42,658 nucleotides of DNA from a virus. The notes below the pieces were generated by a model. That model saw only the letters and a list, made by a program, of their open reading frames with translations, did no database searches and had not been told where the DNA came from. The stretch spans positions 1-42,658 of the IMG/VR virus record IMGVR_UViG_3300045988_050593. One strand, written 5' to 3'. A program made the translations under genes and the position numbers. This document shows, piece after piece, positions 3,221-40,204 of this stretch; positions within the stretch are counted from its first letter, which is position 1; the number at the start of each line of letters is the position of its first letter.

Positions 3221-3396
3221 TCCTTCACCGCCTGAGTCCCGAAGTAGAACGCGATGACCGTCGTGAAGATCGTCATGAACTGCGTCTCGGACAGTCTCCC
3301 CATCGCCGCCAGAGCCGCAAAAACGCCGGTCAGCGTGAGTGTCACGAGGCTCTTGACGGTCAGCAGCTTTACAAGCCGATCGATGAGCTTATTCAT
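3217..3396 (-). CDS. Putative holin (59 aa, two predicted TM helices)
   Basis: Internal start MNKLIDRLVKLLTVKSLVTLTLTGVFAALAAMGRLSETQFMTIFTTVIAFYFGTQAVKE. It lies immediately upstream of the endolysin with a 4-nt overlap. The longer 113-aa ORF-track version has an implausible Arg/Ser/Thr-rich N-terminus. Confidence 0.7.
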   Translation of the reverse strand: MNKLIDRLVKLLTVKSLVTLTLTGVFAALAAMGRLSETQFMTIFTTVIAFYFGTQAVKE

Positions 3397-3643
3397 GGGC
3401 AAAATACCGCGCGACGGCGTTGTCCGTCTCCCCGGGCTGCACGCTGTCCTGCAATCTGCGGACGAAGTCGGTGAACTCCTGATACTCTCCCAGCTCCGCG
3501 CCGCCCTCGCCGACGTCCCAGCCCATGCGGTTGGCGTACTCGTAGGACGCGTCGCCAATGTCCATGTTCATTTCGTCGCCGATTTTCGCGATCTCGAAGC
3601 GGCCTTTGTGGAATCTGTTCTCCGTGTAGTTTCTTTTTTCCAT
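3389..3643 (-). CDS. Hypothetical acidic protein (84 aa)
   Basis: Strong SD TAAGGAGGAT. The ORF overlaps the holin start. Confidence 0.7.
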   Translation of the reverse strand: MEKRNYTENRFHKGRFEIAKIGDEMNMDIGDASYEYANRMGWDVGEGGAELGEYQEFTDFVRRLQDSVQPGETDNAVARYFAHE

Positions 3644-3655
3644 GATATATCCTCC

Positions 3656-4000
3656 TTAATTCGCCCGTCTGAGGGGCAGTTTGTTTACTTCGCTCATGAC
3701 GACGTCCGCGTCCCCGTTCCCGCCGAGGCCGTTGTGGTAGCTGTCGTGCATGGCGTTCAGGATTCGGCGGTCGTCAAAGTCGATTTCTCCCGCCTCGATG
3801 TACTTCTGGCCGAGATACCGGATGCGGTCGAGCATCACGATCTTTTGCGATTCGCACAGGGCAAGGATCTTCGCGTCGCGCGTTTTCTCCGCCTCCGCGC
3901 GATTTTTCTCATGTTTCTCGCGCCGTTTGAGCGCGGCGGCGGCAAAGGCGCACACGATAGATGCCGTCGCCGTGATCGCCGCGCAGATTATGTCTCCCAT
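3656..4000 (-). CDS. Membrane-anchored protein of the lysis region (114 aa)
   Basis: Start chosen at MGDIICAAITATASIVCAFAAAAL (AAGGAG SD 6 nt upstream). It has an N-terminal TM helix and then a charged coiled segment. Function unknown. Confidence 0.65.
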   Translation of the reverse strand: MGDIICAAITATASIVCAFAAAALKRREKHEKNRAEAEKTRDAKILALCESQKIVMLDRIRYLGQKYIEAGEIDFDDRRILNAMHDSYHNGLGGNGDADVVMSEVNKLPLRRAN

Positions 4001-7671: not shown

Positions 7672-8865
7672 TTACACCTCGCCAGCGTAGAGGTCACCGG
7701 AATAGTAATAGTACGGTTCAAGGATCTTGACCGTCTCCGTGACCTCTACGGATAATTTAGTTGTGCTGTTGATGTTGACCGGATTCGGGGTGAAAACCGC
7801 CGATGTGATCTCAAAAATCTTAACGACGAAGCCCTCGCTTGTTTTGGCTGAGAGCGTCGTCGGGTCGCTGTCGCCCTCGGAGTTATAGGCGACGAGCTTG
7901 TAGGTGTATGTGTTGTTCGGCTCAACGCTTGAATCCGTGTACGTCGTGCCGGTCTGCGTGGAGATAAGCGTGCCGTCTCTGTACAGTTTGTACCCTGTAC
8001 ACTCGACCGCGCCCCATGCAACAGAAAGGCTAAAGTAGTCCTTTGCCGTTTGGCGGAAGTTTGCAGGGGTGTCAGGAACTTGCTTGTACAGCTCAAGGCA
8101 GGTAATGCGCACGTAGCCGTCGCCGGAGTGGCCGGCCTCGGACGATCCGCCGGGCGCGGTAAACGACGTGTTGCCCGCCTTTGTGCTGGCGTTGGTCAGA
8201 TAATACGCCGAGCCGAGCAGATAGCCGCTCGGGGCGTTTTTGCCTGTCCAGACAAAGCCGGAGCCGCCGCCACCGCCGCGGTCGTCGTCGCCGGAGCTAT
8301 CCGGGAAAGAGCCGCCGCCGCCGTACCATCCGCCGCCGCCAGCGCCAGCGTAGCCGTTGCTCGCAGCTTTGCCCTCGCCGCCTTGCCCGAATGTTCCGGC
8401 GTTTCCGCTACCGCCCGTGCCTCCGGACGTCTGCGTTCCGCCGCCACCGCCGGAGCCGTAGTTCTGCGTCGCGGTGCCGCCCGTCTCGCCGCCGCCGTAC
8501 ATGCCGTTTTTGTTGGTCGCGCCGTCTGAGCCGCCGCCGCCCGCCACGATGACGCGGGCGTATAAGCTGTCCGTCCCGACGCGAATATCCGTCGCGCCGC
8601 CGCCGCCGTTGTACGTTGCACGCGCGCCGCCGCCGTTAAAGCCGCCGCTGGTCCTGCCCGTGTTACCGGAACCACCGACGTAGACATACAGGGTGGTTTG
8701 CTTTTCAAGCGAGATTTCGCCCACACTGTACCCGCCGAGACCGCCGTATGACGAGCTGCTGCGATAGCCGCCCTGCGCGCCCCAACATTCCAGCTTATAG
8801 CGGCCGGGCTTGAGGGTAACGGTTCGCTTTGCTCCCGTGTAGGCGTAGTTTGTTACAGTGCTCAT
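7672..8865 (-). CDS. Glycine-rich domain protein with an FN3 domain (tail fibre/adhesin candidate)
   Basis: The N-terminus reads YKLECWGAQGG ... GGLGGY ... VYVGGSGN ... GGGGATDIR ... VAGGGG ... GYVRI, the pattern of the Gly_rich family (as in the ALK glycine-rich domain). This is followed by PDTPANF...YKLYRDG...YTYKLVAYNSEGDS (FN3). Confidence 0.75.
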   Translation of the reverse strand: MSTVTNYAYTGAKRTVTLKPGRYKLECWGAQGGYRSSSSYGGLGGYSVGEISLEKQTTLYVYVGGSGNTGRTSGGFNGGGARATYNGGGGATDIRVGTDSLYARVIVAGGGGSDGATNKNGMYGGGETGGTATQNYGSGGGGGTQTSGGTGGSGNAGTFGQGGEGKAASNGYAGAGGGGWYGGGGSFPDSSGDDDRGGGGGSGFVWTGKNAPSGYLLGSAYYLTNASTKAGNTSFTAPGGSSEAGHSGDGYVRITCLELYKQVPDTPANFRQTAKDYFSLSVAWGAVECTGYKLYRDGTLISTQTGTTYTDSSVEPNNTYTYKLVAYNSEGDSDPTTLSAKTSEGFVVKIFEITSAVFTPNPVNINSTTKLSVEVTETVKILEPYYYYSGDLYAGEV

Positions 8866-8868
8866 TCG

Positions 8869-10320
8869 TTACGCACCTGCCAGCGTCAGGCTTGCAGCGA
8901 CGGTGTTTGACAGCGTGATCTCCATCTTGGCGATATTGCCCGTCACGGTCGTGCCCCACGGTGTGGGGACGGTGACGCAGTCGCCTAAAATCTCGCCGTC
9001 AAGCACGATCTTCGCGTTGGCCTGGTCTCGTTTTGCGTAGTAGTCATAGACGCGCTGCGCGACGGCCTGCCCGATAGCAGGGGAGACAAGCGTCGCGTCC
9101 GTCACCTTTTTTTCGTTCGACTTCGTATTTGCCGTGACGTTGGGGTTTGTCACAGTGTATACCGTCTGCGTGTCGGTGTACTTTTTGCCGCCGATCTCAA
9201 CGCCGCCGTTGGCGTCCTCGGCGTAGGAATGTGCAGTGACAGATACCGACGTGACAAGCGCGTCCGTCGTGACCGTCGCTCCCTGATACGTTCTGCCCTC
9301 GCCGATGGTTTCGGCCGTGTCGTCAAGGGTAAAGACGCGGATTTTGTAACCGCCGTCCGTCGCCGCGCACACTCCCCACGCGAAAAGCACTTGCTGCAAA
9401 GCCGCGCGCTTTGTTGCCGCTTGAATGACGCCGGACAGATTCACGTCCGTGACGGTCCCGAAGTCAATTTCAAAGTCGTTTCCGACGATTTCCGCGAACA
9501 GTGCCTTTGCGGATTTGTCCGCGTAAAATCCACCTGAAAAAGCTGCATCGTCCAAAACGCCAAGCGAGTCCTTGCAGTCGATTTTGTAAACGCTTGTCGA
9601 CGATCTCGCAGACTGGTTGATGTAGTAAACACCAATGAGATGGTTGTCCGTCCACGCCTCGACCGGCTGCTTCTCCTGAAACAGATAAGCGACGTTCGCC
9701 CGGTTGTCCAGCGTCCACGTCATGGTGGAGGTCGGAAGTTCGACGGCTACAGTGTGCATCTCCTGCACGATCTGCACGTTGCGCAGCTCCGCCATTCCAA
9801 ACTCGCGGATGACGCCGAACACAATGCCAGTTAGTCTCGCATACCGCCGCGGCAGCCACGTTTTTTTGATCGTCAGGACGATTTTGTCAAAGGCGACGAC
9901 CGTCTGCTCGCAGAACTGAATGTCGGACGTCACGGCAAAATCTTTGCTTGTCTTGAGCGTTGTTCCCTGATACCACGCGACATTCACGAGCGACGGCCTG
10001 CCGGGGAAATCGGACATAAGCGTCACGCCGACGGAGGAATACGCCTGCGAAAAAGTGATCGTGATAACGGGCGCGTTTTCAAACGCGCAGTCTGCGCCGG
10101 ACATGGCCGACGACCAGAAGGAAACCGTCTGGCCGTTGTGAACATCACGAGAGCCGTCCAAAGCCCATTGGTTTAGTTCCAGCGTCGCAAGCGCCGCCGT
10201 GGTGCCGTCGCTTACCAGCTCAGTGGGGGAGGAAAACCCATTTTCCGAGCTGGTGGCGACGGTCGCGTTGTCCGCGGATCCCGGCGCAATATCCTTGTAG
10301 ACGATTTTTGACGTGCTCAT
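8869..10320 (-). CDS. Tail-associated / baseplate hub-like protein (483 aa)
   Basis: Start at MSTSKIVYKD (ATGA overlap with the upstream gene). It is the second gene after the TMP, the canonical Tal position. No lysin domain recognised. Confidence 0.7.
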   Translation of the reverse strand: MSTSKIVYKDIAPGSADNATVATSSENGFSSPTELVSDGTTAALATLELNQWALDGSRDVHNGQTVSFWSSAMSGADCAFENAPVITITFSQAYSSVGVTLMSDFPGRPSLVNVAWYQGTTLKTSKDFAVTSDIQFCEQTVVAFDKIVLTIKKTWLPRRYARLTGIVFGVIREFGMAELRNVQIVQEMHTVAVELPTSTMTWTLDNRANVAYLFQEKQPVEAWTDNHLIGVYYINQSARSSTSVYKIDCKDSLGVLDDAAFSGGFYADKSAKALFAEIVGNDFEIDFGTVTDVNLSGVIQAATKRAALQQVLFAWGVCAATDGGYKIRVFTLDDTAETIGEGRTYQGATVTTDALVTSVSVTAHSYAEDANGGVEIGGKKYTDTQTVYTVTNPNVTANTKSNEKKVTDATLVSPAIGQAVAQRVYDYYAKRDQANAKIVLDGEILGDCVTVPTPWGTTVTGNIAKMEITLSNTVAASLTLAGA

Positions 10321-22534: not shown

Positions 22535-23775
22535 GCGATAACTCCCATCCGACGCGAAATGCGCTCCAAAGCGTAGCGTGTCGCGTCTATCAGGTGATTG
22601 TCAGCGTCCGGGTATCCGCTGATGATCTCGCCGTCCCGGTCGCGCTCGTACTCGTAGTTTACAAACTCTTCGTATGCGTTTGGCGTCCGGCGGCGGTCGA
22701 TCACGATCTTGCGCCGTTGTAGCCACTTCATACCATAGTCCACGGAGCCGGGGCCTTTGATAGCCTCCTTTGCCGGAAGCCCAAGCGCCCGATAATCCGC
22801 AGCGCTCTTAGGCTCGGCGCTGTCACACGCGATGTACGCGTCGCCATATCCGCGCTGCTTGATAATTCCGCCGCTCTCCTCGTTTGTCAGCTTGTTTTTA
22901 TAAATCTCGTCGATAAAGTAGATCGTCTCACGCGCCCGGTCGTAGTGTAGCCGGATAAACGCAAATGGATCTGGATACCATCCCCAGTCAACACCTTGGT
23001 ATATCTGGTCGAAGCTCCCGATCTCCTCGTCCGTGATCTCGCGCAGCTCCAAATTCTCAAAGACGTTTCCGCCCGTGCCGACCGGAATGCCGAGGTACTC
23101 GTGCTGATACGCTCTTTCGTCCGTCGCTTTAAGGTGCTCGGCCTCTGCGATAAACTGCTCGCCCAGCCACTCACGCGGTGCTTCGAGGTATGTCGAGCTG
23201 TGGCACAGCCGATCTGCGCGCTCCTCCAAGCTGTCTTTGTTTGCCCAGTTGTCACGCGAGATCGGCGGGTTGTAGCTTTCAAAATTCCAAAACATCGAGC
23301 CACCACGCATGGTGGACTGTAAAATCGTTCGGATTTCCGCACGACCCGCAAACTGGTCCTTTTCCTCAAAATGCGTGATGGCGATATAGCCAAACGGAAC
23401 CTTGATCGACTTGATCTTCATCGGGTCGTCGGCGCCACGGAACATGATTTTCTGTCCGGTAGGCTTATAAATCAGCTCCATCGGGGAGACCTTCGCCTCC
23501 CAGTACGCCGCCACGCCCAGCTCGCCGATTGCCCAGATGTACTGCGCATACACGCTGTCGCGAATGGTGTTTGCGACCTTGCGCAGCACCAAAGCATGGC
23601 AGTTGCGGTTATCCTTTTGCATCAGCAGCAGCGGCACAAGGATAGACACTGTGGAGGATTTCAAGGAGCCGCGCCCGCCGCTGAAATCGTAGTGGGTGTG
23701 ATTGTGCTGGACGACGTCGCGCGCAACGCTGTAAAAGGCAGGGCCGATGATCTGCGACAGCAAAACCTTAGACAT
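22531..23775 (-). CDS. terL: Terminase large subunit (PBSX/Terminase_3-like, 414 aa)
   Basis: Start MSKVLLSQIIG. Walker A is FSGGRGSLKSST. The nuclease half contains DWGWYPDP ... DADNHLIDATRYAL. The N-terminal extension in the ORF track was rejected. Confidence 0.9.
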   Translation of the reverse strand: MSKVLLSQIIGPAFYSVARDVVQHNHTHYDFSGGRGSLKSSTVSILVPLLLMQKDNRNCHALVLRKVANTIRDSVYAQYIWAIGELGVAAYWEAKVSPMELIYKPTGQKIMFRGADDPMKIKSIKVPFGYIAITHFEEKDQFAGRAEIRTILQSTMRGGSMFWNFESYNPPISRDNWANKDSLEERADRLCHSSTYLEAPREWLGEQFIAEAEHLKATDERAYQHEYLGIPVGTGGNVFENLELREITDEEIGSFDQIYQGVDWGWYPDPFAFIRLHYDRARETIYFIDEIYKNKLTNEESGGIIKQRGYGDAYIACDSAEPKSAADYRALGLPAKEAIKGPGSVDYGMKWLQRRKIVIDRRRTPNAYEEFVNYEYERDRDGEIISGYPDADNHLIDATRYALERISRRMGVIA

Positions 23776-24187
23776 CGACGACCACCTGTACATTGTCGAC
23801 TGTGAGCTTAGTCTCACTCGACTCGCGCCAGCCAAAATTGCACGACAAGCTGAATTTTGCGCCGCCAGCGCCGTCTTTGTCGTAGAGGCGGGACTCGGCG
23901 TACTCCTCGCATCTGGCCTTTGCGCGCGTAATTGTGTCCGCAAACTCTGGCCTGCCTTGATAGTCAATCAGCGCCTGCCTGCCCGTAAAGCCGAGCGCGA
24001 GCGCAAGCCCCGTCACAGTCGGCGGGTGTGCATTGATGAGCACGGGATTACTGTATTTGTCAAAGCACGGATAGCCATTTGCATCTCGCAGCGGCTCGCC
24101 CTTGCAGCTCTCGAAATACTCCTCAATTACCGTCTCCATCGCCGCGACGCTTTTATACTTTCGCGGCCTACCTCCCGGATGTGCCAT
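23768..24187 (-). CDS. terS: Terminase small subunit (139 aa)
   Basis: Start MAHPGGRPRKYKS. The HTH-like stretch reads PPTVTGLALALGFTGRQAL. It lies directly upstream of terL and overlaps it. Confidence 0.8.
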   Translation of the reverse strand: MAHPGGRPRKYKSVAAMETVIEEYFESCKGEPLRDANGYPCFDKYSNPVLINAHPPTVTGLALALGFTGRQALIDYQGRPEFADTITRAKARCEEYAESRLYDKDGAGGAKFSLSCNFGWRESSETKLTVDNVQVVVDV

Positions 24188-24263: not shown

Positions 24264-24319
24264 GACTCTTGACATGGCCCTGTTAGCTCAATTTTGCAGA
24301 GTATAAAAGTAACGAAACC

Positions 24320-24348
24320 TTGCGTTTCCTCTCTGCCCGTTGTAAAAT
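24320..24348 (+). promoter_or_regulatory. Sigma-70-type promoter of the dUTPase-fold-TM gene
   Basis: TTGCGT, a 17-nt spacer, then TAAAAT, about 25 nt upstream of the ATG at 24373. Confidence 0.55.
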
Positions 24349-24372
24349 GAGCATAAAGGTGAGGTGCTGGAT

Positions 24373-25179
24373 ATGATTCTTGTCGATAAGGAGTTGCAGA
24401 CGTTCCTCCTGAACGGAGATACCGACGCGCCCGGCAAAACTGCAATTTTTGGCGGAGATGAGTCGTGCGTAACAAATATCGGGTATGACTTGCGCGCAAA
24501 CGCATTTTATCGTGGCGGAAAGCGGGAAGATTGCTGTGATCTCGCCCCCGGCGAATCCGTCTTTGTGGAATCCCGCGAGATCGTGCAGTTTGATGCGGTA
24601 ACAGTCGGCCGCGTTTTTCTCAAGAACAGCCGAATCCGTATGGGGTTTACGCTTGACGCTCCCGTGTACCAGCCCGGCCATAAAACGCGCATCTACTTCC
24701 GTGTTACGAATGTTTCAAGCGACTCGCTCCGCGTTTCTGCCGGGGATAAGTACGCCATGCTTCTCTTTGAGCAGCTGCATGACGCCCCTGCTGCGCCATA
24801 CAGTGGGGCGTTCAAAGATGAGTTTGATTTTAAGGGCCTTGGCGACTACAAATCTATGTATCTTTCGCAGATACAGTCTTTGCAAGGGAAAGTAAAGGAC
24901 ATTCGCGACATGGAGAAGGGGATTTACGGGAACGTCGTTACGATTCTCACGATTTTTGTCACGATCTTCACGATCCTTAACGTAAATATCGAGCTTGCGC
25001 GCGCTGCCGCGACCGTCTTCGCTTTCCTGAATTTTAACCTTGCTGTTCTTGGCGGCATCAGTTTCCTTTCTCTTTTCCTCTCCGAGCTTGTCGGGCGGGA
25101 AAAAAGATGGAGCCGCGCTCTTTGGCTAATCCCAATCGTGTGCTTTGCGGCAATCCTGATCTTAAATCTACTTGCATAA
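24373..25179 (+). CDS. dCTP deaminase / dUTPase-fold domain fused to a C-terminal three-TM module (268 aa)
   Basis: SD is AAGGTGAGGTG. MILVDKELQ, IGYDLRA, LAPGESVFVES, KNSRIRMGF, YQPGHKTRIYFRVTN and APYSGAFKDE follow the Dcd motif order. C-terminal helices: VVTILTIFVTIFTIL, VFAFLNFNLAVLGGISFLSLFL, LWLIPIVCFAAILILNLL. Confidence 0.8.
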   Translation: MILVDKELQTFLLNGDTDAPGKTAIFGGDESCVTNIGYDLRANAFYRGGKREDCCDLAPGESVFVESREIVQFDAVTVGRVFLKNSRIRMGFTLDAPVYQPGHKTRIYFRVTNVSSDSLRVSAGDKYAMLLFEQLHDAPAAPYSGAFKDEFDFKGLGDYKSMYLSQIQSLQGKVKDIRDMEKGIYGNVVTILTIFVTIFTILNVNIELARAAATVFAFLNFNLAVLGGISFLSLFLSELVGREKRWSRALWLIPIVCFAAILILNLLA

Positions 25180-25185
25180 ATCTCA

Positions 25186-25215
25186 AGCGCCGGAGAAATC
25201 CGGCGCTCTTTTTTT
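25186..25215 (+). terminator. Rho-independent terminator, partly bidirectional
   Basis: agcgccgga / tccggcgct stem with a gaaa loop, followed by ttttttt. Confidence 0.85.
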
Positions 25216-25621
25216 ATCCGCAGTAATATCCCATATTGCGTGCAACCTCATACACAAACCGCGCATTTTTCCGTCTGGCCGTCGCTTGCCCGACGTGCAG
25301 TTTGTCGGCGATGTAGTCAAAATTTTTGACCCGCATCCAATGCCACAAGCTTACAATGTCCAGCACCAGATCCCCGTCCGGCCACCCCTTGGCCGTTTCG
25401 ATCGCGCGCTGGACTGCAATGTAATCATCATATTCCCGCGCGCACACCGCCCGCAGCGCAGCTCCCTCGACCGGCCTGCCCACGCCCGAGCCGTGCGGCA
25501 TCCCGCTTACCGACGCCGTGACGCTTTGCCGCCCACGGTCGTCAATCCGATCCCGCAGCGCCGGGTACTGCCCGATGGCCGCGCACACATTACGATACCA
25601 CCAGTATCTCGGTCTGCTCAT
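25214..25621 (-). CDS. Putative late-gene transcriptional activator (RinA/ArpU-like, 135 aa)
   Basis: Start MSRPRYWWYRNV. The C-terminal HTH reads IADKLHVGQATARRKNARFVYEVARNMG. It occupies the position just upstream of the packaging genes. Confidence 0.6.
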   Translation of the reverse strand: MSRPRYWWYRNVCAAIGQYPALRDRIDDRGRQSVTASVSGMPHGSGVGRPVEGAALRAVCAREYDDYIAVQRAIETAKGWPDGDLVLDIVSLWHWMRVKNFDYIADKLHVGQATARRKNARFVYEVARNMGYYCG

Positions 25622-25704
25622 ACGATCACGCCCTTTCGTCGAAATAACTAAAACCGCACCCGTTAATTTGGTGCTTTTATGTTGCCGTAAGCTCACATTT
25701 TGTA

Positions 25705-25733
25705 TTGACTTTACGTCAGGTCGATGTTACAAT
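25705..25733 (+). promoter_or_regulatory. Near-consensus sigma-70 promoter
   Basis: TTGACT, a 17-nt spacer, then TACAAT, about 45 nt upstream of the ATG at 25780. Confidence 0.75.
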
Positions 25734-25779
25734 GTAGTCACAAAGCAAAGGGCAACAAAAACAAAAAGGAGGACTAAAA

Positions 25780-26232
25780 ATGGCAATCGCGAACGCTATC
25801 TGCACCTGCAAAAAATGCGGGGCGCAGTTCGAAATCCGCCGCAAGAAGTATAATCGGAAGGCCGCCGACGATTTTGAAGCATGGGCTCCGACTTACTACG
25901 ATACGTGCCCGAAGTGCTATCAGGAAGAAAAGGAAGAGGCCATCGAAGCGGCGAGCGCTGGCCTCCCGGAGCTGATCGGCAGCGAAAAACAGGTCGCCTG
26001 GGCTAAGAAAATCCGTTCCGAGCTCCTGTTTGCGGAAGATCGGAAGCGCTTCGAGGAATCAATACAGGCGCTCGTCCTCGAAATCCCGTCCGCTAAGTGG
26101 TGGATCGAGACTTGCGGCGTGCCACAGAATACAACATGGTACGATCTGTGCACCTACATCCGCAAGTCAACCGATGACTTCAACGCCGACCTCTATCGTA
26201 AGATGTGTGAGGCGTTTAATGCTAAGCAATAA
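25780..26232 (+). CDS. Zinc-ribbon hypothetical protein (150 aa)
   Basis: SD is AAAGGAGGA. CTCKKCG...CPKC is present. It contains LIGSEKQVAWAKKIRSE. Confidence 0.8.
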   Translation: MAIANAICTCKKCGAQFEIRRKKYNRKAADDFEAWAPTYYDTCPKCYQEEKEEAIEAASAGLPELIGSEKQVAWAKKIRSELLFAEDRKRFEESIQALVLEIPSAKWWIETCGVPQNTTWYDLCTYIRKSTDDFNADLYRKMCEAFNAKQ

Positions 26233-26282
26233 TGAACGCCTGCGCGGCCTGCACCGCGCAAAATCAGGAAGGAGCAATCATC

Positions 26283-26720
26283 ATGAAAAAAGTTATCAAC
26301 GGCAAAGTCTACGACACTGACACCGCGCGCAAGGTCGGCTGCATCGACTTCGGCTTGGGAGACCGGATATCCGGCTGGTCGGAGACCCTGTACGTCAAAC
26401 GGACGGGAGAGTATTTCCTGCTCGGCGAGGGCGGCCCCGGCTCAAAGTATTCCGTCTGCACCGGCGTCAACGAGTCCTCCGGCAGCACTAAGATCTTCCC
26501 ACTGTCCTACGACGACGCCTGCAAGTGGGCGGAGGACAACCTCGACGGCGACGAGTACATCGCCGAGTTCGGCGCCATCGCCGAGGATGACACAAACGCC
26601 AAGCTGACCCTGTACCTCCCGGCGTCGACCATCGAGCGCGCCAAGCGCAAGGTCGCGCAGGACGGCACGACACTGTCCGCATACGTCGAGGCGCTTATCA
26701 ACGCCTCGCTCGCCGAGTAA
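26283..26720 (+). CDS. Hypothetical protein with a C-terminal ribbon-helix-helix-like segment (145 aa)
   Basis: Start MKKVINGKVYDTDTARKVG after the SD GGAAGGAG. The C-terminus LTLYLPASTIERAKRKVAQDGTTLSAYVEALINASL looks CopG/RHH-like. Confidence 0.75.
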   Translation: MKKVINGKVYDTDTARKVGCIDFGLGDRISGWSETLYVKRTGEYFLLGEGGPGSKYSVCTGVNESSGSTKIFPLSYDDACKWAEDNLDGDEYIAEFGAIAEDDTNAKLTLYLPASTIERAKRKVAQDGTTLSAYVEALINASLAE

Positions 26721-26738
26721 AATCAGGAGGATAAAAAC

Positions 26739-26990
26739 ATGAAGGTTTCCGCAGCCTACATCAACACCAGTCGAATCGACTATTTTTACTACGTCGTCAT
26801 CGACGGCAAGCTATACCGCTTCTCGTGCTCCCCTGCGCGCGAGATCTCCCAAGCCGATCTTCTCCCCATTGACAGCCCGCTGCCGCTTGACCTCCAGATC
26901 AAGTATTTTCACCTCGAGCCAGCGTCAGAATCGATCTGGACGGAATTTCGGCTTTGCGGCTACGGCATTGAGAAAGCGGATGATCTGTAA
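26739..26990 (+). CDS. Hypothetical protein (83 aa)
   Basis: SD is CAGGAGGAT. It is the last gene of the plus-strand cassette. Confidence 0.7.
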   Translation: MKVSAAYINTSRIDYFYYVVIDGKLYRFSCSPAREISQADLLPIDSPLPLDLQIKYFHLEPASESIWTEFRLCGYGIEKADDL

Positions 26991-26998
26991 CTTAGTCA

Positions 26999-27042
26999 CC
27001 AGCCCAGCGTCCCGCAGCTGTCGGGCGCTGGGCTGGTTTTTT
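26999..27042 (+). terminator. Strong rho-independent terminator
   Basis: ccagcccagcg(t)cccg / cgggcgctgggctgg stem of about 15 bp, followed by tttttt. Confidence 0.85.
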
Positions 27043-28333: not shown

Positions 28334-28742
28334 CGGCTTCCACTTTCCCCGCCGCGCGCTGCGCCTCCATCAGCTGTGCAAACCGCGCCGCGATTTTGTG
28401 CCCGTTGTCCGCCACCCAGTCTATCGAGCAGTACGGAACGCCTTTACAATCCTCATGATTGTCATGGCAATTCACATCGCAGTCATGGAGGTTATAGAGT
28501 GCTCGCAGGATCGTTTCATCGTCCGGCGCGTCAACATTTTGAAGCTTCTCGTCAAGCAAGGTGTTAAAGCTTCCGTTCAGTGTCGCTACATTCTCCGCTT
28601 GCATCTCGATCAGATTCGCCGCCTCGCCCGCCATCCTGCACCCGATCTTGCCGCAGCTGTTGTACTCCGGGCACGCTCTACACCCGCTCTTTCTGCTGCG
28701 GGCAAAAGCCCGCAGCGTGGTGGTGATTTCGTCAAGTGTCAT
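28326..28742 (-). CDS. Cys/His-rich hypothetical protein (138 aa)
   Basis: Start MTLDEITTTL, with an ATGA overlap with the methyltransferase stop. Cys clusters: CRACPEYNSCGKIGC and HDCDVNCHDNHEDC. Confidence 0.7.
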   Translation of the reverse strand: MTLDEITTTLRAFARSRKSGCRACPEYNSCGKIGCRMAGEAANLIEMQAENVATLNGSFNTLLDEKLQNVDAPDDETILRALYNLHDCDVNCHDNHEDCKGVPYCSIDWVADNGHKIAARFAQLMEAQRAAGKVEADG

Positions 28743-30367
28743 ATCGCAATTCTCCTTTCCAGTTCTTCCATCGTTTCGATCTTCTCGTTGCACCACTCCG
28801 GGAGATTTGCTCTTACGACCGCCTCTGCCATCGGCGGGCATACCGCATTCCCGCAGCGCGCCACCTGCTTGCTTTTTCCATACTCTTTCCCCGTGTAGTC
28901 GCGGTCGATTTTGTAATCGCTCGGAAATCCCATCGCATTGTAAAGTTCTCTCGGCGAGAGCATCCGCAGCCCAATGTCCACAATGTAGTACGGCGTTCCG
29001 CCAATCTCCAGCAGCAGCACCTCATCCTCTGCCAGCGTGTAGCCGCAGAGTTTATTCAGGAGTGCGCGTATCTCAGGCCAGCGTCCTAAATCGTCGTTGC
29101 TGCGCATCTTCGCCAAATATGCCTTACACACAGCGAACTCTCCAGCGCTTGTGGTCACGGTCTGCATCGGCTCTTTTATTCGGTGCCCCAAATTGTCGCC
29201 CTTGAATTTCACCACATGAGCGGCTACCACCGCCTCCCGGTCGTGGCTGGTAACGGTGTGCATGGGGTCTTTCACGCCCAAGGGCCTTCCGCCGGTGTAA
29301 TACTCCACCAGATTTGCGCAGGTCAAGCCGTATCTGTTGGAGGCGTCCACCGTATTGATGGGAACTCCCAACCCGGATGCCCGGACGTGCTCCGTCTGTT
29401 CCGTGTGATACTGGATCAGTGCGGGAGCCAGAATCGGTCTGCACAAATTCTCTTTTCCAGTGCTGACCACTGTAGGAACCGGCGCGTTAATGTCATGTAC
29501 GCGGGGTGCTTGCCCCTTGCGCTCCCCGTATCCCGTGGGGACAATGAACGGTTTCCCGCTCCGGATGGTAAATTTGTCCACGCCTCGGATGATGCGCCGC
29601 ATGGTGTTGTCCGCCAAAGGCCGAACCGCCTTCAATCCGTACTGCTCTTTGATTTCCTCCTTGGTGTCAAATATCGACGGGCAAGGAAGTCTCCAGTCGA
29701 TGATTTCTGCCGCGCTGCGCCACGGTTTCAACCGGCTACTCCTCACAGCTTCGCTGTCTCGCGGAGCGTGAGTCGGCGCTGGCCACACGATAGGTTTGCC
29801 ATCACAGCGGGCAATCAGAACGAACCGTTTTCGGCTGGTCGGTGCTCCATAATCCGCCGCCACCAGTTCGCGCCATTCGACCTCGTATCCGAGATCCTGA
29901 AGCTGACCGACGAACTTACGAAATGTTGTTCCAGCAAGTTTCTTCACCGGTTTGCCCTTTCTGACTGGCCCCCACGTTTGGAACTCCTCGACGTTTTCAA
30001 GGAAAATCACGCGTGGCCGCACGGTTCCGGCCCACCGAAGAACAATCCAAGCAAGCCCGCGGATGTTCCGATCTACAAGCGCTGCTCCCTTCGCTTTGGA
30101 GAAGTGCTTACAATCGGGAGAGAACCAAGCAAGCCCAACCTTTCGTCCTTTGCACACTTCTTCGGGGTTCACGTCCCAAACGGACGCCTGTAAGTGCTGG
30201 GTATACGGATGGTTTGTTTTATGCATCAGGATTGCGTCCGGGTCATGGTTGATCGCAATCTCAACGATGCGGCCTGTCGCAAGCTCAATCCCTGTTGACG
30301 CCCCTCCGCCGCCAGCAAAATTGTCGACGATGATCTCGTCGAATAAATCATATTGGCATCCGCTCAT
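28739..30367 (-). CDS. DNA (cytosine-5)-methyltransferase (542 aa)
   Basis: Motif I DNFAGGGG, motif IV SPDCKHFS, motif VI FLENV, motif VIII TSRKRF, motif X GNAVCPP. The start MSGCQYDLF has an ATGA overlap with the upstream gene. Confidence 0.9.
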   Translation of the reverse strand: MSGCQYDLFDEIIVDNFAGGGGASTGIELATGRIVEIAINHDPDAILMHKTNHPYTQHLQASVWDVNPEEVCKGRKVGLAWFSPDCKHFSKAKGAALVDRNIRGLAWIVLRWAGTVRPRVIFLENVEEFQTWGPVRKGKPVKKLAGTTFRKFVGQLQDLGYEVEWRELVAADYGAPTSRKRFVLIARCDGKPIVWPAPTHAPRDSEAVRSSRLKPWRSAAEIIDWRLPCPSIFDTKEEIKEQYGLKAVRPLADNTMRRIIRGVDKFTIRSGKPFIVPTGYGERKGQAPRVHDINAPVPTVVSTGKENLCRPILAPALIQYHTEQTEHVRASGLGVPINTVDASNRYGLTCANLVEYYTGGRPLGVKDPMHTVTSHDREAVVAAHVVKFKGDNLGHRIKEPMQTVTTSAGEFAVCKAYLAKMRSNDDLGRWPEIRALLNKLCGYTLAEDEVLLLEIGGTPYYIVDIGLRMLSPRELYNAMGFPSDYKIDRDYTGKEYGKSKQVARCGNAVCPPMAEAVVRANLPEWCNEKIETMEELERRIAI

Positions 30368-31251
30368 TGCGCGCCCTCCCCCATCAGCTCGTCCATCTCC
30401 ATCTGGCCGGGGAGCACGCCGTCCTCCATCCACCAGTGATAGATGTCGCGGCCTGTCGTCCCAATCCTCCACGACCCGTCCATCCTCCCGCGCCGCTCTC
30501 GTTCGGCGAGCATGCGGTCAAAAGCGTCTATGTAGAGTTTTTGGTATTTTGGGTACCTCGCAAATTCAGCATATCTTGTTGGCTTCCCAGCCAACGGGCA
30601 GCCGATGCACCCGACACGCTTGAATCCGCACCCGTATAGGGGATTGATCGGGATTTTCTCAGCTTCGATGTAGTCCCACACGTCCGTGTCTGTCCAGTCG
30701 ATGATCGGATTGCACACGCTCCTTCTTTTTTGCATGCAGCGTTCAAAAAGCTGTCTCCGGTCGTCGTTGTCGTTGGCAAGGATGACCTTGCTGCTCCTTG
30801 TTTTTGACTCATAAATTCCTCGGTTGTTTTTCCGTTTTGCGCTCTCCGCCCATCTGACGCCTGTCGTAATCATGCGGTTCGCCCCGCCCCGCTCCTTGAG
30901 CACATCGCAGCAATACCGGACGAGCCGCGTCGGCGGCATGAGCTTTTGAGGGATCAGCGCCCACATGGACGTCGGCTTGCCTTTGTACGCAGGGTAGTTG
31001 ATCGTGCATTTGATCCCGAGCGCCTCAAGTCGCTTGAACTCTTCCCGCACGAATCGCACTGTCTCCGGCGCGTCGGCGGTCGTGTGGTTGTGCTGCACCT
31101 CAAAGTTGATTCCTGCGCGCTGCGCCAGTGCGACGCACACGGAGCTGTCCTTGCCGCCGGAGGTCGTGACGATCAGCGGGGCGTGATAAAACTGTTCGCT
31201 CATCTGCGCGGCCGCGCGAAGCCGCTCGAGCGCGGTTTGCTCTTTATCCAT
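30364..31251 (-). CDS. PAPS reductase-family (PP-loop) protein (295 aa)
   Basis: PP-loop is TTSGGKDSS. The C-terminal Cys cluster reads YGCGFKRVGCIGCPL. Confidence 0.85.
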   Translation of the reverse strand: MDKEQTALERLRAAAQMSEQFYHAPLIVTTSGGKDSSVCVALAQRAGINFEVQHNHTTADAPETVRFVREEFKRLEALGIKCTINYPAYKGKPTSMWALIPQKLMPPTRLVRYCCDVLKERGGANRMITTGVRWAESAKRKNNRGIYESKTRSSKVILANDNDDRRQLFERCMQKRRSVCNPIIDWTDTDVWDYIEAEKIPINPLYGCGFKRVGCIGCPLAGKPTRYAEFARYPKYQKLYIDAFDRMLAERERRGRMDGSWRIGTTGRDIYHWWMEDGVLPGQMEMDELMGEGAQ

Positions 31252-31543
31252 CGCTGTTCCCCGTCGTCAGCTCGCACCCGCACGCCGCGTAGCCCGCGAT
31301 GTCCACGTATGTATCTGCTATTTCGGTGACTGCCGTCGCCATGCGGCCGGCCTTGAACAGCACCATCATCATCGCCACGTCGCTCGGCAGGATCTCGACC
31401 TCGTCGCTCTTTAGCATCGCCTGTAAGTACGCCTGCCATAGCTGCGCGATCACCGCAAAATTCTGCTCCGGCTCGCCGTACTGCTGATTCCGATCCGTGC
31501 AAACGCACTTTTTAGCCTCTTCAAGGCACATTTCACGATTCAC
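31244..31543 (-). CDS. DUF6378-like protein (99 aa)
   Basis: The GTG start follows the SD AAGGGAGGAA. DRNQQYGEPEQNFAVIAQLWQAYL...DVAMMMVLFKAGR...DIAGYAA matches the remembered DUF6378 pattern. Confidence 0.65.
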   Translation of the reverse strand: MNREMCLEEAKKCVCTDRNQQYGEPEQNFAVIAQLWQAYLQAMLKSDEVEILPSDVAMMMVLFKAGRMATAVTEIADTYVDIAGYAACGCELTTGNSDG

Positions 31544-32181
31544 TTTTGTTCCTCCCTTTTGTAGTTTGCCGCTATGTCGTCAAAGCACACCGGCACGGCC
31601 TCGTGCAGCTTGTCCAAAAGCATCAAGGCCACCTCCCGCATCTGCGGATGCGCCGCCTTGTCGCAGCGCAGCTTCAAAAAATGCCTCCACTCGCGGATGT
31701 TGGCCGTCATCACAAGCTCGGTCTTTAGACTGTTCGGCAGGACGGCTCGGGCTTCCTGCGGTGTGCAGCCAATGTTAAGCAGCTCAAAGTAGCGCCGCTC
31801 TGCGGTCAAGCAGGCCTCTCTCCAGTACTGCCAGCCCTCGGTGCCCTCCACCAGATAAAGGGGGCGGATGACTGTAATCTCTCCGCCAAATCCATCCTTG
31901 GAGTAGTTGCAGTAGCGGGTGCTCTCTTGGCAGTAGCTCGCCATACGATGTCGTACGATCTCGTGCGACACCCCTCGGTCGCACGTAAATTTGACCGTAA
32001 TCGACGCGTGCTCAAGCACCGCCTCGTGCCCGCGCTTGATGATCCCTGTGACAAATTTTTCAGCCGTCCCGTCCGCGATTTTGTCCTCGGACTTGTAGCA
32101 GACGCGGCCGCAGCGCTCAAGGTGCTGTAAAATCCCGTCCGTCGGCGTCATGATCTCGACGCCCGGTTTGATAATCCGCAT
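31540..32181 (-). CDS. thyX: FAD-dependent thymidylate synthase ThyX
   Basis: Exact ThyX signature RHRMASYCQESTRY (RHRxxSxxxxSxRY). 213 aa. Confidence 0.9.
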   Translation of the reverse strand: MRIIKPGVEIMTPTDGILQHLERCGRVCYKSEDKIADGTAEKFVTGIIKRGHEAVLEHASITVKFTCDRGVSHEIVRHRMASYCQESTRYCNYSKDGFGGEITVIRPLYLVEGTEGWQYWREACLTAERRYFELLNIGCTPQEARAVLPNSLKTELVMTANIREWRHFLKLRCDKAAHPQMREVALMLLDKLHEAVPVCFDDIAANYKREEQK

Positions 32182-34618: not shown

Positions 34619-35087
34619 GCGTCCTGCACTCGTCCATGAGTGCGTTGATGACGCGCGTCATCTGCGCGGTGTCGTAGGTGCTTGACCCCTGGTACAGCCG
34701 CAGCACCAGATCGTCACCGTCCGCGCTCTCGCACTCGGTGATCCAGCCGATGCCCTTTGCCTGCCACTCGTTCGAGACAAGCGCGGCGTCCGCCCTGCTC
34801 ACGCGCACCGTAACATAGTCCCCGTAATCTCGGATGATCTCTCGATAGACCTCGTTGCGCTTTGCGTCGATGGCCTCGGCGATCCGCTGGCACAGCTCCC
34901 ACATCAATCGGTTCTGATCGTTTGAGCGCGGCTTTTTCTCCTTCTCGATGCTCAGCATATACCGCGTTTCCGGCTTCAGCTTCGCCGCCATTTTCCGCGC
35001 CGCGAAAACGTCCACGACCGGGAATCTCAGGCACGTCCGGCCGTCCTCGTCCTTTGCGATGGACGGCCGGAACACGGAGGCGTTCAC
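34566..35087 (-). CDS. NinB/Orf-like recombination-associated protein (173 aa)
   Basis: The RSNDQNRLMWELCQRIA motif (RSxxQNxxxW) and the position directly after Erf. The family call is tentative. Confidence 0.55.
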   Translation of the reverse strand: MNASVFRPSIAKDEDGRTCLRFPVVDVFAARKMAAKLKPETRYMLSIEKEKKPRSNDQNRLMWELCQRIAEAIDAKRNEVYREIIRDYGDYVTVRVSRADAALVSNEWQAKGIGWITECESADGDDLVLRLYQGSSTYDTAQMTRVINALMDECRTLDIDVDDGRVASLLAEN

Positions 35088-35737
35088 GACTCAGGCGCGG
35101 CGTCGGCTTCGAGAGCTGCCGCCTTCTTGCGCTTGGCTGCGCACGCCCAGCACAGGCGGACGCCGTAGGTTTTCTCGGTCGATTCCGCGATCTGCTCGGC
35201 CTTCCAGTTGCCGACGTCCGCGATCGCATGACCGCAGTCGGTGCATTTGCCGACGGCCTTGCGTCTGGCAGCCTCGCTCCGGAAACCTCGCTCCTCGCTG
35301 CCCTGCTGGTCGGGATCGTCGCCGGTGATGATCTTGTACGCCTTCAAAAGCGCGTATTTGTCCGAGTACGTCATGGCCTTGCCGGGGGCTTTGTCGCCGT
35401 TGTCGATGCCGTCTCCGTAGGTCGTGACGTCGACAAACTCGTCCGGCTTCTCGGTGTTGACGAATCTGTAGACTGTTTCCAACCGCATAAAGAACTGCGA
35501 TTTCTCGTTCGTGTTGCCGTTGTAAACCGACGTCGTCGTGATGACGTCCTTGTCGATGATCTCGCGCTTCACGGGATAGCTGTAGATCCCGTACTTCTGT
35601 TCAAGCGGCTTCACCGCCGCGAGCACGTCCGCCTCGCCGACGGCCTTGTAAGACCCTTTGCCGACGTTGACGTTCAGGTTCTTCGCCACGGCGGACAGCT
35701 CAGCCGTCACGCCAGCGAGTTTTTCATAGATGTTCAT
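35084..35737 (-). CDS. ERF-family single-strand annealing protein with a C-terminal zinc ribbon
   Basis: YKAVGEADVLAAVKPLEQKYGI ... GKAMTYSDKYALLKAYKIITGDDPD, followed by CTDCG...CWAC. Confidence 0.8.
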   Translation of the reverse strand: MNIYEKLAGVTAELSAVAKNLNVNVGKGSYKAVGEADVLAAVKPLEQKYGIYSYPVKREIIDKDVITTTSVYNGNTNEKSQFFMRLETVYRFVNTEKPDEFVDVTTYGDGIDNGDKAPGKAMTYSDKYALLKAYKIITGDDPDQQGSEERGFRSEAARRKAVGKCTDCGHAIADVGNWKAEQIAESTEKTYGVRLCWACAAKRKKAAALEADAAPES

Positions 35738-38925: not shown

Positions 38926-39085
38926 GTTCTCTGGTCGCTCCTTTCGTTAGCGCTTTTATTTATCTACGGTTTACCACTTTCTGACTGTTTTGTCAATAGC
39001 TTAAACAACATTTCTTATTTTATCAGTCATTATGTCCAATAGAACGGACATATCAAAACAAATGTTTGCTTTTGGAGGCGTTACT

Positions 39086-40204
39086 ATGGCGGAGAAAAAG
39101 TACCAGTATGTGCGAAAGACGTTTTCCTTTGACGGCAGGCGCTACGAGGTCTATGGAAAAACCGAGGAAGAGGCCATCGAGAAGAAGATCGAGATGCGGA
39201 AAAAGCTCGAGGAAGGCGCTGCCGCCGAGAGCAAAAACGCCACGGTTGACCAATGGTACACCCGCTGGAAATCGTTGTACAAGGACGAGCAGGGAATCAC
39301 CGAGAAGAGCCTGAAAATGTACGACGAGAAGTACAATAACTATATCAAGCCCGCCATCGGCAGAAAGAAAATCGCAAGCGTCACCGAGATGCATTTACAA
39401 GCCATCATGAACGAGACGGCCGGCATGTCAAAGTCCACCGCGCTAAAAGTGCGGATGGTGTTAAAGCAAATGTTCCACAAAGCGTACAGGACGCACTTGA
39501 TCCCGTTCGATCCGTCGGAGGACTTGACGGTCGCAAAGTCCGCGACAGTGGGGAAGCGGAGGTCGCTGACAAATCGGGAGCGTGCGCTTTTCTTGATGGT
39601 CGCGCCCAAAATCCCATGCGGCGAAATCCTACTAGCGATGTACTATACAGGGATGCGGCCGGGCGAGCTGCGCGCTCTGACGTGGGACGACGTTGACCTT
39701 GATGAAGGAGAAATCTCCGTCAACAAAGCAATCGAGAGCGGGACGAAAGGCACCGTAAAGGCGACCAAAACCGCCGCGGGCGTTCGCTTCGTCCCGATCC
39801 GGCCGAAGCTCGACGCGATCCTGCGCAAGATGGAACGGTCGCCGGACGACAACCTTGTTTTCCACAATGCGCACGGCGGGCAGCACACAACTGCGTCGTT
39901 CAATCGCCTCTGGAAGCGGACGCTCCGGTGGATGGATATTGCCAACGGAGCAAAGGTTTACCGCAATCAGATCGTCGAGTCAACGCTTGCAGACGACCTG
40001 GTCCCGTACTGCCTCCGGCACACGTTCTGCACAGACCTCGAAGCCGCCGACGTGCCGATAAACGTCGCAAAGTCGCTGATGGGGCATTCCAGCATACAGG
40101 TCACGGCAAACACCTACACGCATTCTTCAAAAGAGACGCTCCGAAAAAACATCGGCCTGCTGGAAGCTGGTTCTGACGATCCAGAAGGCGAGTGTGGGAA
40201 ATGA
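39086..40204 (+). CDS. int: Tyrosine recombinase / phage integrase (372 aa)
   Basis: Start MAEKKYQYVRK after the SD TGGAGG. Motifs: YYTGMRPGELRAL, LRHTFCTDL, MGHSSIQVTANTYTH. Confidence 0.9.
   Translation: MAEKKYQYVRKTFSFDGRRYEVYGKTEEEAIEKKIEMRKKLEEGAAAESKNATVDQWYTRWKSLYKDEQGITEKSLKMYDEKYNNYIKPAIGRKKIASVTEMHLQAIMNETAGMSKSTALKVRMVLKQMFHKAYRTHLIPFDPSEDLTVAKSATVGKRRSLTNRERALFLMVAPKIPCGEILLAMYYTGMRPGELRALTWDDVDLDEGEISVNKAIESGTKGTVKATKTAAGVRFVPIRPKLDAILRKMERSPDDNLVFHNAHGGQHTTASFNRLWKRTLRWMDIANGAKVYRNQIVESTLADDLVPYCLRHTFCTDLEAADVPINVAKSLMGHSSIQVTANTYTHSSKETLRKNIGLLEAGSDDPEGECGK

Follow-up and report, generated by a model that had tools for sequence, protein, structure and literature searches.

A single-gene cassette beside the terminase genes

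The DNA analysed here, which we call the window, is the full 42,658 nucleotides of the IMG/VR virus record IMGVR_UViG_3300045988_050593, and it is essentially the whole genome of a temperate phage. Our subject is a gene of 268 codons on its plus strand, located between the gene for the terminase small subunit (terS) and a gene whose product resembles transcriptional activators (Table 1). The gene forms an exchangeable cassette, and its product joins a domain of the dUTPase/dCTP deaminase (Dcd) fold, in which the catalytic residues of both enzymes are replaced, to a stalk and three predicted transmembrane (TM) helices. An earlier note on this DNA, made from the sequence alone, had singled the gene out as a candidate for an undescribed defence or abortive-infection function. 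Two further contigs (42,592 and 42,619 bp) encode an identical protein in the same gene order, and the existence of such near-identical contigs of 42.6 kb suggests that the window is a complete phage genome.

Table 1. Features of the candidate gene, its product and its flanks, with positions in the window.
Feature	Position	Strand	Basis or remark
Exchanged cassette (5' region, gene, terminator)	24296-25222	.	blastn against L032; lower G+C
Putative sigma-70-type promoter, TTGCGT-17-TAAAAT	24320-24348	+	Read from the sequence; weak consensus match
Shine-Dalgarno-like AAGGTGAGG	24356-24364	+	8 nt 5' of the ATG at 24373; read from the sequence
Candidate gene, coding sequence	24373-25179	+	268 aa and stop; head, stalk and three TM helices; list of open reading frames
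dUTPase/Dcd-fold head, residues 1-160	24373-24852	+	Pfam DCD, AlphaFold2, Foldseek; predicted cytoplasmic
Amphipathic juxtamembrane stalk, residues 161-185	24853-24927	+	AlphaFold2 helix, column statistics
TM1 (predicted), residues 186-208	24928-24996	+	Conserved N187, T190, T193, S/T200, N203, N205
TM2 (predicted), residues 217-240	25021-25092	+	Conserved N222, G227
TM3 (predicted), residues 250-268	25120-25176	+	W251, P254; C-terminus predicted outside the cell
Intrinsic terminator	25186-25215	+	Hairpin 25186-25207, 9 bp, GC-rich, then T7
Terminase small subunit (terS)	23768-24184	-	Pfam GP3_package, 6e-20
Transcriptional-activator-like gene, 135 aa	25214-25621	-	PHROG 248 'transcriptional activator', weak match, 4.5e-6

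The only substantial open reading frame (ORF) on the plus strand of this slot extends from either a GTG at 24364 or an ATG at 24373 to position 25179, and we took the ATG as the start, giving 268 residues, because homologues open with M[ILV]LVD. As the earlier note had it, this is a single plus-strand gene between two minus-strand neighbours; it is convergent with the activator-like gene and divergent from terS, beyond which lie terL and a gene for an SPP1-type portal. The convergent neighbour had also been called the late activator, and what stands of that assignment is the weak PHROG match.

The limits of the cassette became apparent from the viral contig L032/L116 (IMGVR_UViG_3300013947_000128; hereafter L032), which is closely related to the window phage: its activator protein is 80% identical, and its terS, terL, portal and capsid DNA 79-90% identical, to that of the window. 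In a blastn comparison of the two, homology breaks at 24295/24296 and is restored at 25222/25223, and the interval between these points is filled by 927 bp in the window and by 491 unrelated bp in L032. The last two codons of the activator-like gene differ from those of the relative because the cassette junction falls there. The lower G+C content that had been remarked upon was borne out as well: it is 0.509 for the gene and 0.495 for the cassette, against 0.564 for the window, so that the gene lies at the 7th percentile of equal-sized windows, and at third codon positions (GC3) it is 0.59, against 0.67-0.85 in the neighbouring genes.

The gene had also been credited with regulatory signals of its own. 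Of these, the Shine-Dalgarno-like element and the terminator hold up, the latter a strong one with nine pairs, a T7 tail and a folding energy of -18.8 kcal/mol (z = -3.96; 0 of 200 shuffled sequences folded as well), whereas the promoter, which is plausible from its sequence, was not called by a consensus scan with a threshold of 9/12 matches. The same scan did yield a promoter-like site for terS (24286-24258, 10/12 matches).

Because the gene has its own terminator, is replaced in a relative, deviates in G+C and GC3, and lies on the strand opposite to both flanks, we assign 24296-25222 as an exchangeable moron cassette. It is autonomous and stands outside the flanking operons, the promoter being its weak part, and, since related phages lack it, the gene is dispensable. 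Moron status had been proposed before; the finding of a different cassette at exactly this slot, in a relative whose flanks are about 80-90% identical, gives that proposal more strength.

The head has the dUTPase/Dcd fold

Residues 1-150 match the Pfam family DCD (PF22769) with 34.3 bits against a cut-off of 27 (E 3e-8), and the head also matches TIGR02274 and PHROG 1663. The TIGR02274 score, 33.4 bits against an equivalog cut-off of 92.8, is below the equivalog level for dCTP deaminase. A profile built from 35 sequences retrieved archaeal-type dUTPases of the PDB at 1e-12, and Dcd, bifunctional Dcd:Dut and retroviral dUTPases at 1e-5 to 5e-3. The Dcd-like order of motifs that had been read in the N-terminal part is thereby borne out.

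Structure prediction agrees with these matches. In the AlphaFold2 model the predicted confidence (pLDDT) exceeds 90 over residues 1-140 and is 60-69 over the C-terminal arm, and a Foldseek search with the head found a Thermococcus dUTPase (E 3e-13, TM-score 0.85) as well as M. tuberculosis Dcd:Dut and E. coli Dcd, with TM-scores of 0.63-0.86 across Dcd and dUTPase structures. The dUTPase-like barrel on which the earlier note had staked its interpretation was thus recovered, and on the strength of the Pfam and Foldseek matches we are confident that residues 1-150 form a dUTPase/Dcd beta-barrel. Against the viral structures of BFVD, Foldseek returned matches to the head only and no full-length analogue.

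Proteins of the dUTPase/Dcd fold are obligate trimers with their active sites at the subunit interfaces, and, because every characterised member of the fold is trimeric, the head is probably a trimer too. In Dcd and dUTPases a C-terminal arm closes over the bound nucleotide; the corresponding arm of the head comprises residues 139-160, with conserved P139, Y143, G145, E150 and Y159.

Both catalytic residues are lost and the pocket is kept

To describe conservation we counted residues in the 254 homologues that contain the head. The catalytic Glu of Dcd, which serves as general acid/base of the deaminase, is E138 in E. coli and the Glu of TLELSN in M. tuberculosis. In an explicit alignment with M. 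tuberculosis Dcd:Dut the family motif 'yfRltN' lies on 'TLELSN' and R110 sits on the catalytic Glu; an Arg occupies this position in 249 of 253 family members. The earlier note had read FRV in place of LEF at this site, and had this right.

A second loss goes beyond what had been seen before. In dUTPases the motif III Asp activates the attacking water, and in the same alignment YQPG of the protein lies on IDPG, which places Q100 on that Asp. Where the solved dUTPases and Dcd:Dut read VDPG, IDEG, IDAG or IDPG the family reads YQPG, and four dUTPase alignments agree on the position of the Asp. Across the family, position 100 is Gln (193), Phe (35), His (12), Arg (5) or Tyr (4), and never Asp.

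The surroundings of these two positions are strongly conserved. D39 (motif I, GYD), N85, S86 and R89 (motif II), P101, G102, H103, T105, N113, Y143, G145 and E150 are each 90-100% conserved, and for D39, N85, R89, H103, T105, N113, Y143 and E150 the value is at least 95%. Asn85 is the equivalent of Ser111 of E. coli Dcd. Because the Glu and the Asp are both lost family-wide while motifs I and II and the arm are near-invariant, the sequences are read most economically as those of a pseudo-enzyme whose pocket has been conserved, and which would bind a ligand and carry out neither canonical reaction. The suggestion that the protein may bind nucleotides without deaminating them is reinforced by the absence of both catalytic residues, by the invariance of the pocket and by the presence of the head on a second type of putative effector, described below.

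A stalk and three predicted membrane helices follow the head

The head continues into a stalk whose hydrophobic residues (163, 167, 170, 174, 177, 180 and 184) recur at a spacing of 3-4, as in coiled coils, and in which E181 and Y185 are near-invariant. AlphaFold2 models a single long helix over residues 162-211, after the lower-confidence arm (141-161), and further helices over 215-240 and 249-267. Hydropathy places TM segments at 186-208, 217-240 and 250-268, so that the two methods agree on the three hydrophobic C-terminal helices that had been read from the sequence. In TM1 and TM2, N187, N203, N205, N222 and G227 are near-invariant and are accompanied by a stripe of Thr and Ser.

The loop between TM2 and TM3 (residues 241-249, GREKRWSRA) is basic and predicted to be cytoplasmic, and by the positive-inside rule this would place the head inside the cell and the C-terminus outside. 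Two relatives (P0189 and P0190) extend past TM3, and the tail of P0190 resembles PG_binding_1 weakly, below the Pfam cut-off; a tail with a weak likeness to a peptidoglycan-binding domain agrees with an external C-terminus. We predict an N-in, C-out topology.

A Pfam scan at E values up to 10 found only DCD, with neither SLATT nor another described pore-forming module over the C-terminal 110 residues. A search with a profile of the C-terminal part (A3) recovered no other N-terminal partner, only fragments and one frameshifted copy, and few full-length members were returned, which makes this a weak negative. The frameshifted copy (L126/L127, 4542-5330) is divided into pieces of 44, 93 and 109 aa and is apparently decaying; it is chromosomal and adjoins genes for a tRNA synthetase and a LexA-like repressor.

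The same head occurs on another domain and alone

Members of a sister subfamily (the P0231 family, about 309 aa, at least 20 clusters) carry the head on an alpha/beta domain that we call NDT-like. Their heads have the same invariants, namely GYDL, RNSRIRQGL, YQPGH.T, Arg at the site of the Glu, and Y.GAFQ.E. The NDT-like domain shares 47% identity with a P0326 domain that scores above the Pfam threshold for Nuc_deoxyrib_tr (PF05014; 29.7 bits against a cut-off of 28.8), and matches to that family were also obtained with its homologues P0346 and P0349; weak matches were to a CBASS TIR effector in PADLOC (9.6e-5) and to DNPH1/Rcl. Foldseek with a model of the DCD and NDT-like domains listed 50 matches, all of them to the head and none informative on the C-terminal domain, which we therefore call NDT-like on the transitive evidence of these sequence matches. 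In other proteins the NDT-like domain has Cpn60-like, NUDIX and ricin-B domains as fusion partners. Two loci of the sister subfamily (L134 and L135; 6001-6930) lie beside a DpnII restriction-modification system and beside Rhs, transposase and kinase-NB-ARC-TPR genes. One head on alternative output modules is the pattern of immune sensor-effector proteins, and by this analogy nothing else among the indirect evidence speaks as strongly for a sensing role as the sister subfamily does.

Proteins of about 155-170 aa that consist of the head only are likewise common in the family. The TM part is missing from 47 of 273 sequences, some of which are fragments. In L032, positions 3204-3674 hold a complete head-only ORF of 156 aa that is 46% identical to residues 1-151 and keeps YQPGH and the Arg in place of Glu. 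This gene occupies the same slot between the activator and terS, on the strand of the late genes, where it abuts the stop codon of the activator gene. A second complete head-only ORF, in L033 (8001-8474), lies on the opposite strand between Bro/Rha-like genes. We considered whether these two forms were assembly fragments and rejected this, as both are complete ORFs with stops inside long contigs. Such copies may either have an activity of their own or serve as decoys or sponges against the membrane-bound form.

Rare forms (P0247/P0251) include a fusion to a HicB-like antitoxin domain and a protein of 775 aa whose long linker is of low complexity and which has one TM helix and a further domain at its C-terminus.

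Homologues recur in prophage slots and defence islands

We collected 353 homologues (clustered at 90%), forming about 300 clusters at 50% identity; most are full-length proteins of 260-280 aa. Its range is limited to gut Clostridia, Coriobacteriia and Bifidobacteriaceae with their phages: members occur in Oscillospiraceae, Lachnospiraceae, Ruminococcus, Blautia, Faecalibacterium, Collinsella, Olsenella, Bifidobacterium and Pseudoscardovia, and in 30 contigs of IMG/VR.

To survey genomic context, ORFs were called in 111 loci, and an identity threshold of 70% divided the targets among 34 lineages. Of the neighbour families, just the tyrosine integrases (6) and serine recombinases (5) were common to more than one lineage, together in 11 of the 34, and no conserved partner gene, cyclase or small partner ORF was found across the 34. 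We then scanned the 149 genes that lie within three of the homologue, using one locus per lineage. Pfam identified resolvases/recombinases (4), phage integrases (2) and terminase and portal proteins (2-3), and PADLOC identified AbiLi/AAA_21 (3 lineages), AbiQ/ToxN, SIR2-pAgo, pVip, AbiLii, mads and PDC-S48.

Individual loci illustrate these settings. The closest distinct relative (P0003, 68% identity) lies between a tyrosine integrase and a repressor; P0025 has a serine recombinase on one side and an S24 repressor on the other, and Abi_alpha close by; P0067 lies between a serine recombinase and helix-turn-helix (HTH) repressors; P0034 is directly 3' of an HTH_3 repressor; and P0030 is the last gene of its prophage, after the holin. 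In L001, P0033 (10001-10825) begins 3 nt after a pVip gene (9066-9998; PADLOC 1.1e-29) in an operon-like arrangement that is repeated in L002-L004. We rejected pVip as an obligate partner, the two being adjacent in only 1 of 34 lineages, and likewise rejected a housekeeping role, as nucleotide-metabolism genes do not recur among the neighbours.

A Collinsella lineage (L061-L115, around 8000-8800 in each) has one largely conserved neighbourhood across 53 GTDB species, with an AbiLi-like AAA_21 ATPase and DUF3825, Bles03/PUA-like and REase_MTES_1575-like proteins. It also includes an unannotated protein of 373 aa with a C-terminal hydrophobic tail, possibly surface-anchored, and several of the Collinsella copies are shortened to 183-233 aa.

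The family is thus recurrent in defence islands, prophage accessory slots and mobile elements, as defence genes are. The earlier note had proposed a survey of neighbourhoods to tell such locations from housekeeping nucleotide operons, and the homologues fall in prophage slots, at the integrase-repressor position in four lineages and behind the holin in one, and beside AbiL, AbiQ/ToxN, SIR2-pAgo and pVip. The note had also known of no described defence family with this combination of domains. Scans of the protein with PADLOC, Pfam, NCBIfam and PHROGs recognised the DCD domain only, apart from a chance-level 2TM match in PADLOC; the sole name given to the family in any source is 'hypothetical protein'; and our full-text literature searches brought up no description of the architecture, a paper on serine recombinases as defence markers making no mention of it. 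A dead dUTPase-fold sensor on a membrane module would be an unprecedented sensor fold, in a family that is as yet unnamed.

A ligand-sensing defence protein of the lysogen is the favoured interpretation

These results support the earlier note's view of the gene as a defence candidate; a defence or abortive-infection function itself is what we infer from them. The explanation that we favour, and hold tentatively, is that a temperate phage of gut Gram-positive bacteria carries here a moron consisting of one gene, whose product is a membrane-disrupting, ligand-sensing protein for defence or superinfection immunity of the lysogen. The gene would probably be expressed in the lysogen and guard it against other phages. 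As the head retains the motifs that bind phosphate and Mg, and the lid arm, but neither catalytic residue, its most likely partner is a ligand resembling a pyrimidine (deoxy)nucleotide, or else a phage factor directed at the pocket, which it would bind without turnover.

On this explanation the gene would be transcribed in the lysogen, and a trimeric head would lie at the inner face of the membrane, anchored by three helices per subunit. A pyrimidine-nucleotide-like ligand or a phage protein in the pocket would order the lid arm, which runs on into the heptad-like stalk helix and then into TM1, offering a route for the signal. The bundle of nine helices per trimer, with its Asn, Thr and Ser faces, could then rearrange, so that the membrane would be compromised and the infection would abort.

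Several observations weigh against this interpretation. The proposed promoter has 3/6 and 5/6 matches in its two hexamers, 8/12 in all, and remained below the threshold of the scan. The match to the PADLOC '2TM' effector model (PDLC00700) has an E value of 0.04 over 47 residues, which is chance level, and an effector role of the TM module lacks independent support because no other N-terminal partner of it was found. Because head-only forms exist in phages, the head may act alone, with the TM part merely an anchor, and a simple sensor-effector picture leaves these homologues unexplained. The invariant H103, R110 and E150 could constitute a new catalytic site instead of a pure binding site. Finally, the Collinsella pattern resembles vertical inheritance more than it does a mobile defence gene, a mild objection.

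A more elaborate form of the favoured explanation, which we consider unlikely, would account for the head-only copies as well. Here the dead dUTPase-fold trimer would be an immune receptor that senses a pyrimidine (deoxy)nucleotide alarm, such as a dUTP/dCTP imbalance, a modified deoxynucleoside triphosphate (dNTP) made by a phage, or, in the one lineage with pVip, the ddhCTP made by that enzyme. Closure of the lid arm, relayed by a stalk of three helices, would open a nine-helix membrane pore, the NDT-like domain would be a second effector, and head-only phage copies, for instance that in the late operon of L032, would be decoys or sponges that poison or starve the receptor. If this were true, the family would be a new class of sensor with two types of effector and a matching anti-defence.

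The favoured explanation, if true, would add the pseudo-dUTPase as a new sensor fold to the single-protein sensor-effector immune proteins, and would mean that immunity has drawn on the Dcd fold on two occasions, for an active enzyme that depletes nucleotides, which is known, and for a dead receptor. As a system it lends itself well to experiment, comprising one gene of 268 aa, a defined pocket (N85, R89, H103, R110 and E150), two natural effector variants and head-only forms. In gut Clostridia, Coriobacteriia and Bifidobacteriaceae, where prophage immunity shapes the phage-host dynamics of the microbiome, defence systems have been little explored. Even if the protein were not a defence protein, a conserved, membrane-anchored pseudo-dUTPase would be an architecture in want of an explanation.

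Alternative explanations

The gene could instead act by non-lethal superinfection exclusion (Sie), blocking DNA entry at the membrane, for example at the ejection or tape-measure channel, with the head as an oligomerisation platform or regulator. Sie genes of Gram-positive phages typically occupy slots in the lysogeny module, and homologues of our gene are found in just such slots, beside integrase or repressor genes; three TM helices, an external C-terminus, the weakly peptidoglycan-binding-like tail of P0190 and the want of a recurrent partner gene would all suit such a role. A scaffold, however, would need neither near-invariant nucleotide-pocket motifs nor a lid arm, and the head is also found on the soluble NDT-like domain, which could not act at an injection channel, and in soluble head-only forms. 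We regard exclusion as improbable.

On a par with exclusion in our estimation is a role in the life cycle of the phage itself, be it in lysis timing as the partner of a holin or antiholin, in host takeover, or in regulation of the late switch by dUTPase-like signalling. The slot between the activator-like gene and terS would fit, the more so as the head-only gene of L032 is apparently co-transcribed there with the activator gene and the late genes; in one lineage the gene comes directly after a holin, and ThyX and other nucleotide-related proteins are encoded by the window phage as well. Against this, our gene opposes the activator gene, diverges from terS and ends in its own terminator, it is dispensable, and most lineages lie in a lysogeny module or in chromosomal defence islands that have no phage genes nearby.

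We give rather little credence to a membrane-tethered active enzyme, in which H103, R110 and E150 would hydrolyse or modify dUTP, dCTP or a phage-modified dNTP and the output would be nucleotide chemistry. Such an enzyme would explain the invariant polar residues in the pocket, head-only proteins would be the same enzyme without its anchor, and the Dcd fold is reportedly used by catalytic dCTP deaminases in defence. Yet neither the Asp of dUTPases nor the Glu of Dcd is present, the residue at position 100 changes among Gln, Phe, His, Arg and Tyr as a catalytic residue would not, the conserved stalk and the three TM helices with their conserved Asn residues would be left unexplained, and it would be redundant to fuse an enzyme to the NDT-like domain, a second one that cleaves nucleotides.

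A gene for lysogenic conversion or addiction that has nothing to do with phages, whether a nucleotide-gated channel or transporter or a toxin with an unrecognised antitoxin, would accord with the single Collinsella neighbourhood shared by 53 species and with the relative fused to a HicB-like antitoxin domain, but there is no conserved adjacent small ORF, the neighbours are enriched in phage-defence and integrase genes and not in metabolic ones, and we consider it very unlikely.

Other genes of the phage

On the other side of the activator-like gene is a second block of plus-strand sequence (25621-27000) that is also absent from L032. It contains three ORFs, encoding a protein of 150 aa with a weak Zn-ribbon match (25780-26232), one of 162 aa whose tail resembles DUF6364/Arc-like ribbon-helix-helix proteins (26232-26720), and one of 83 aa (26739-26990), and it may be a second moron or a module resembling toxin-antitoxin systems. 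Other genes of the phage encode a DNA C5-methyltransferase (28739-30472), a PAPS-reductase-like protein (30364-31251), ThyX (31540-32181), an Erf recombinase (35084-35737) and a tyrosine integrase (39032-40204). Rfam and tRNA scans of the window gave no match.

Comparison with known systems

The head shares its beta-barrel with Dcd, Dcd:Dut and the archaeal-type dUTPases (PF22769; PDB 8y1w, 9ln0, 2qxx and 1xs1), and with them the order of motifs: GYDL, a Ser/Arg motif (NSRIR), xPGx and a C-terminal PY.G.[FY]Q arm. It differs from them in having Arg for the Glu, and Gln, Phe or His for the motif III Asp, in the addition of a stalk and three predicted TM helices, and in that the genes of the family are located in prophages and defence islands and not in housekeeping operons. 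At the residues that define them, the protein falls outside both Dcd (EC 3.5.4.13) and the trimeric dUTPases (EC 3.6.1.23).

The anti-phage dCTP deaminase is reportedly an active, soluble enzyme that has an N-terminal kinase-like domain and depletes dCTP. Our candidate resembles it as a single-gene protein with a Dcd-fold domain, a connection to pyrimidine deoxynucleotides and, as proposed here, an anti-phage role; it differs in that it has neither the catalytic Glu nor an N-terminal extension or kinase domain and is predicted to be embedded in the membrane. The PADLOC models, which include those for dCTP deaminase and Abi systems, gave no match up to E 10 apart from the 2TM match mentioned above.

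As a small membrane protein encoded at a prophage moron site and, as we propose, expressed in the lysogen, the candidate is like Sie2009, Ltp, AbiC/AbiP/AbiT/AbiZ, RexB and gp31 of the mycobacteriophage Butters, none of which, to our knowledge, has a dUTPase-fold head. A precedent for signalling by the fold is provided by the Dut proteins of staphylococcal phages, which de-repress SaPI via Stl: a trimeric dUTPase fold whose output is a nucleotide-dependent conformational signal. Those proteins are active and soluble and act through a repressor, whereas the candidate is predicted to be catalytically dead and is fused to its own output module.

In its proposed design the candidate resembles the ligand-gated TM effectors found in CBASS, Pycsar, Thoeris and type III CRISPR systems (for example Cap14/Cap15, PycTM, Cam1), in which a cytoplasmic nucleotide-binding domain is joined to membrane-damaging helices, as we propose for the candidate. 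We know of no use of a dUTPase-like sensor fold among them. The candidate also has no cyclase or partner gene, and its ligand would have to be a nucleotide made by the cell or by a phage; as in those systems, the same putative sensor head is also found on an alternative effector of the nucleosidase type.

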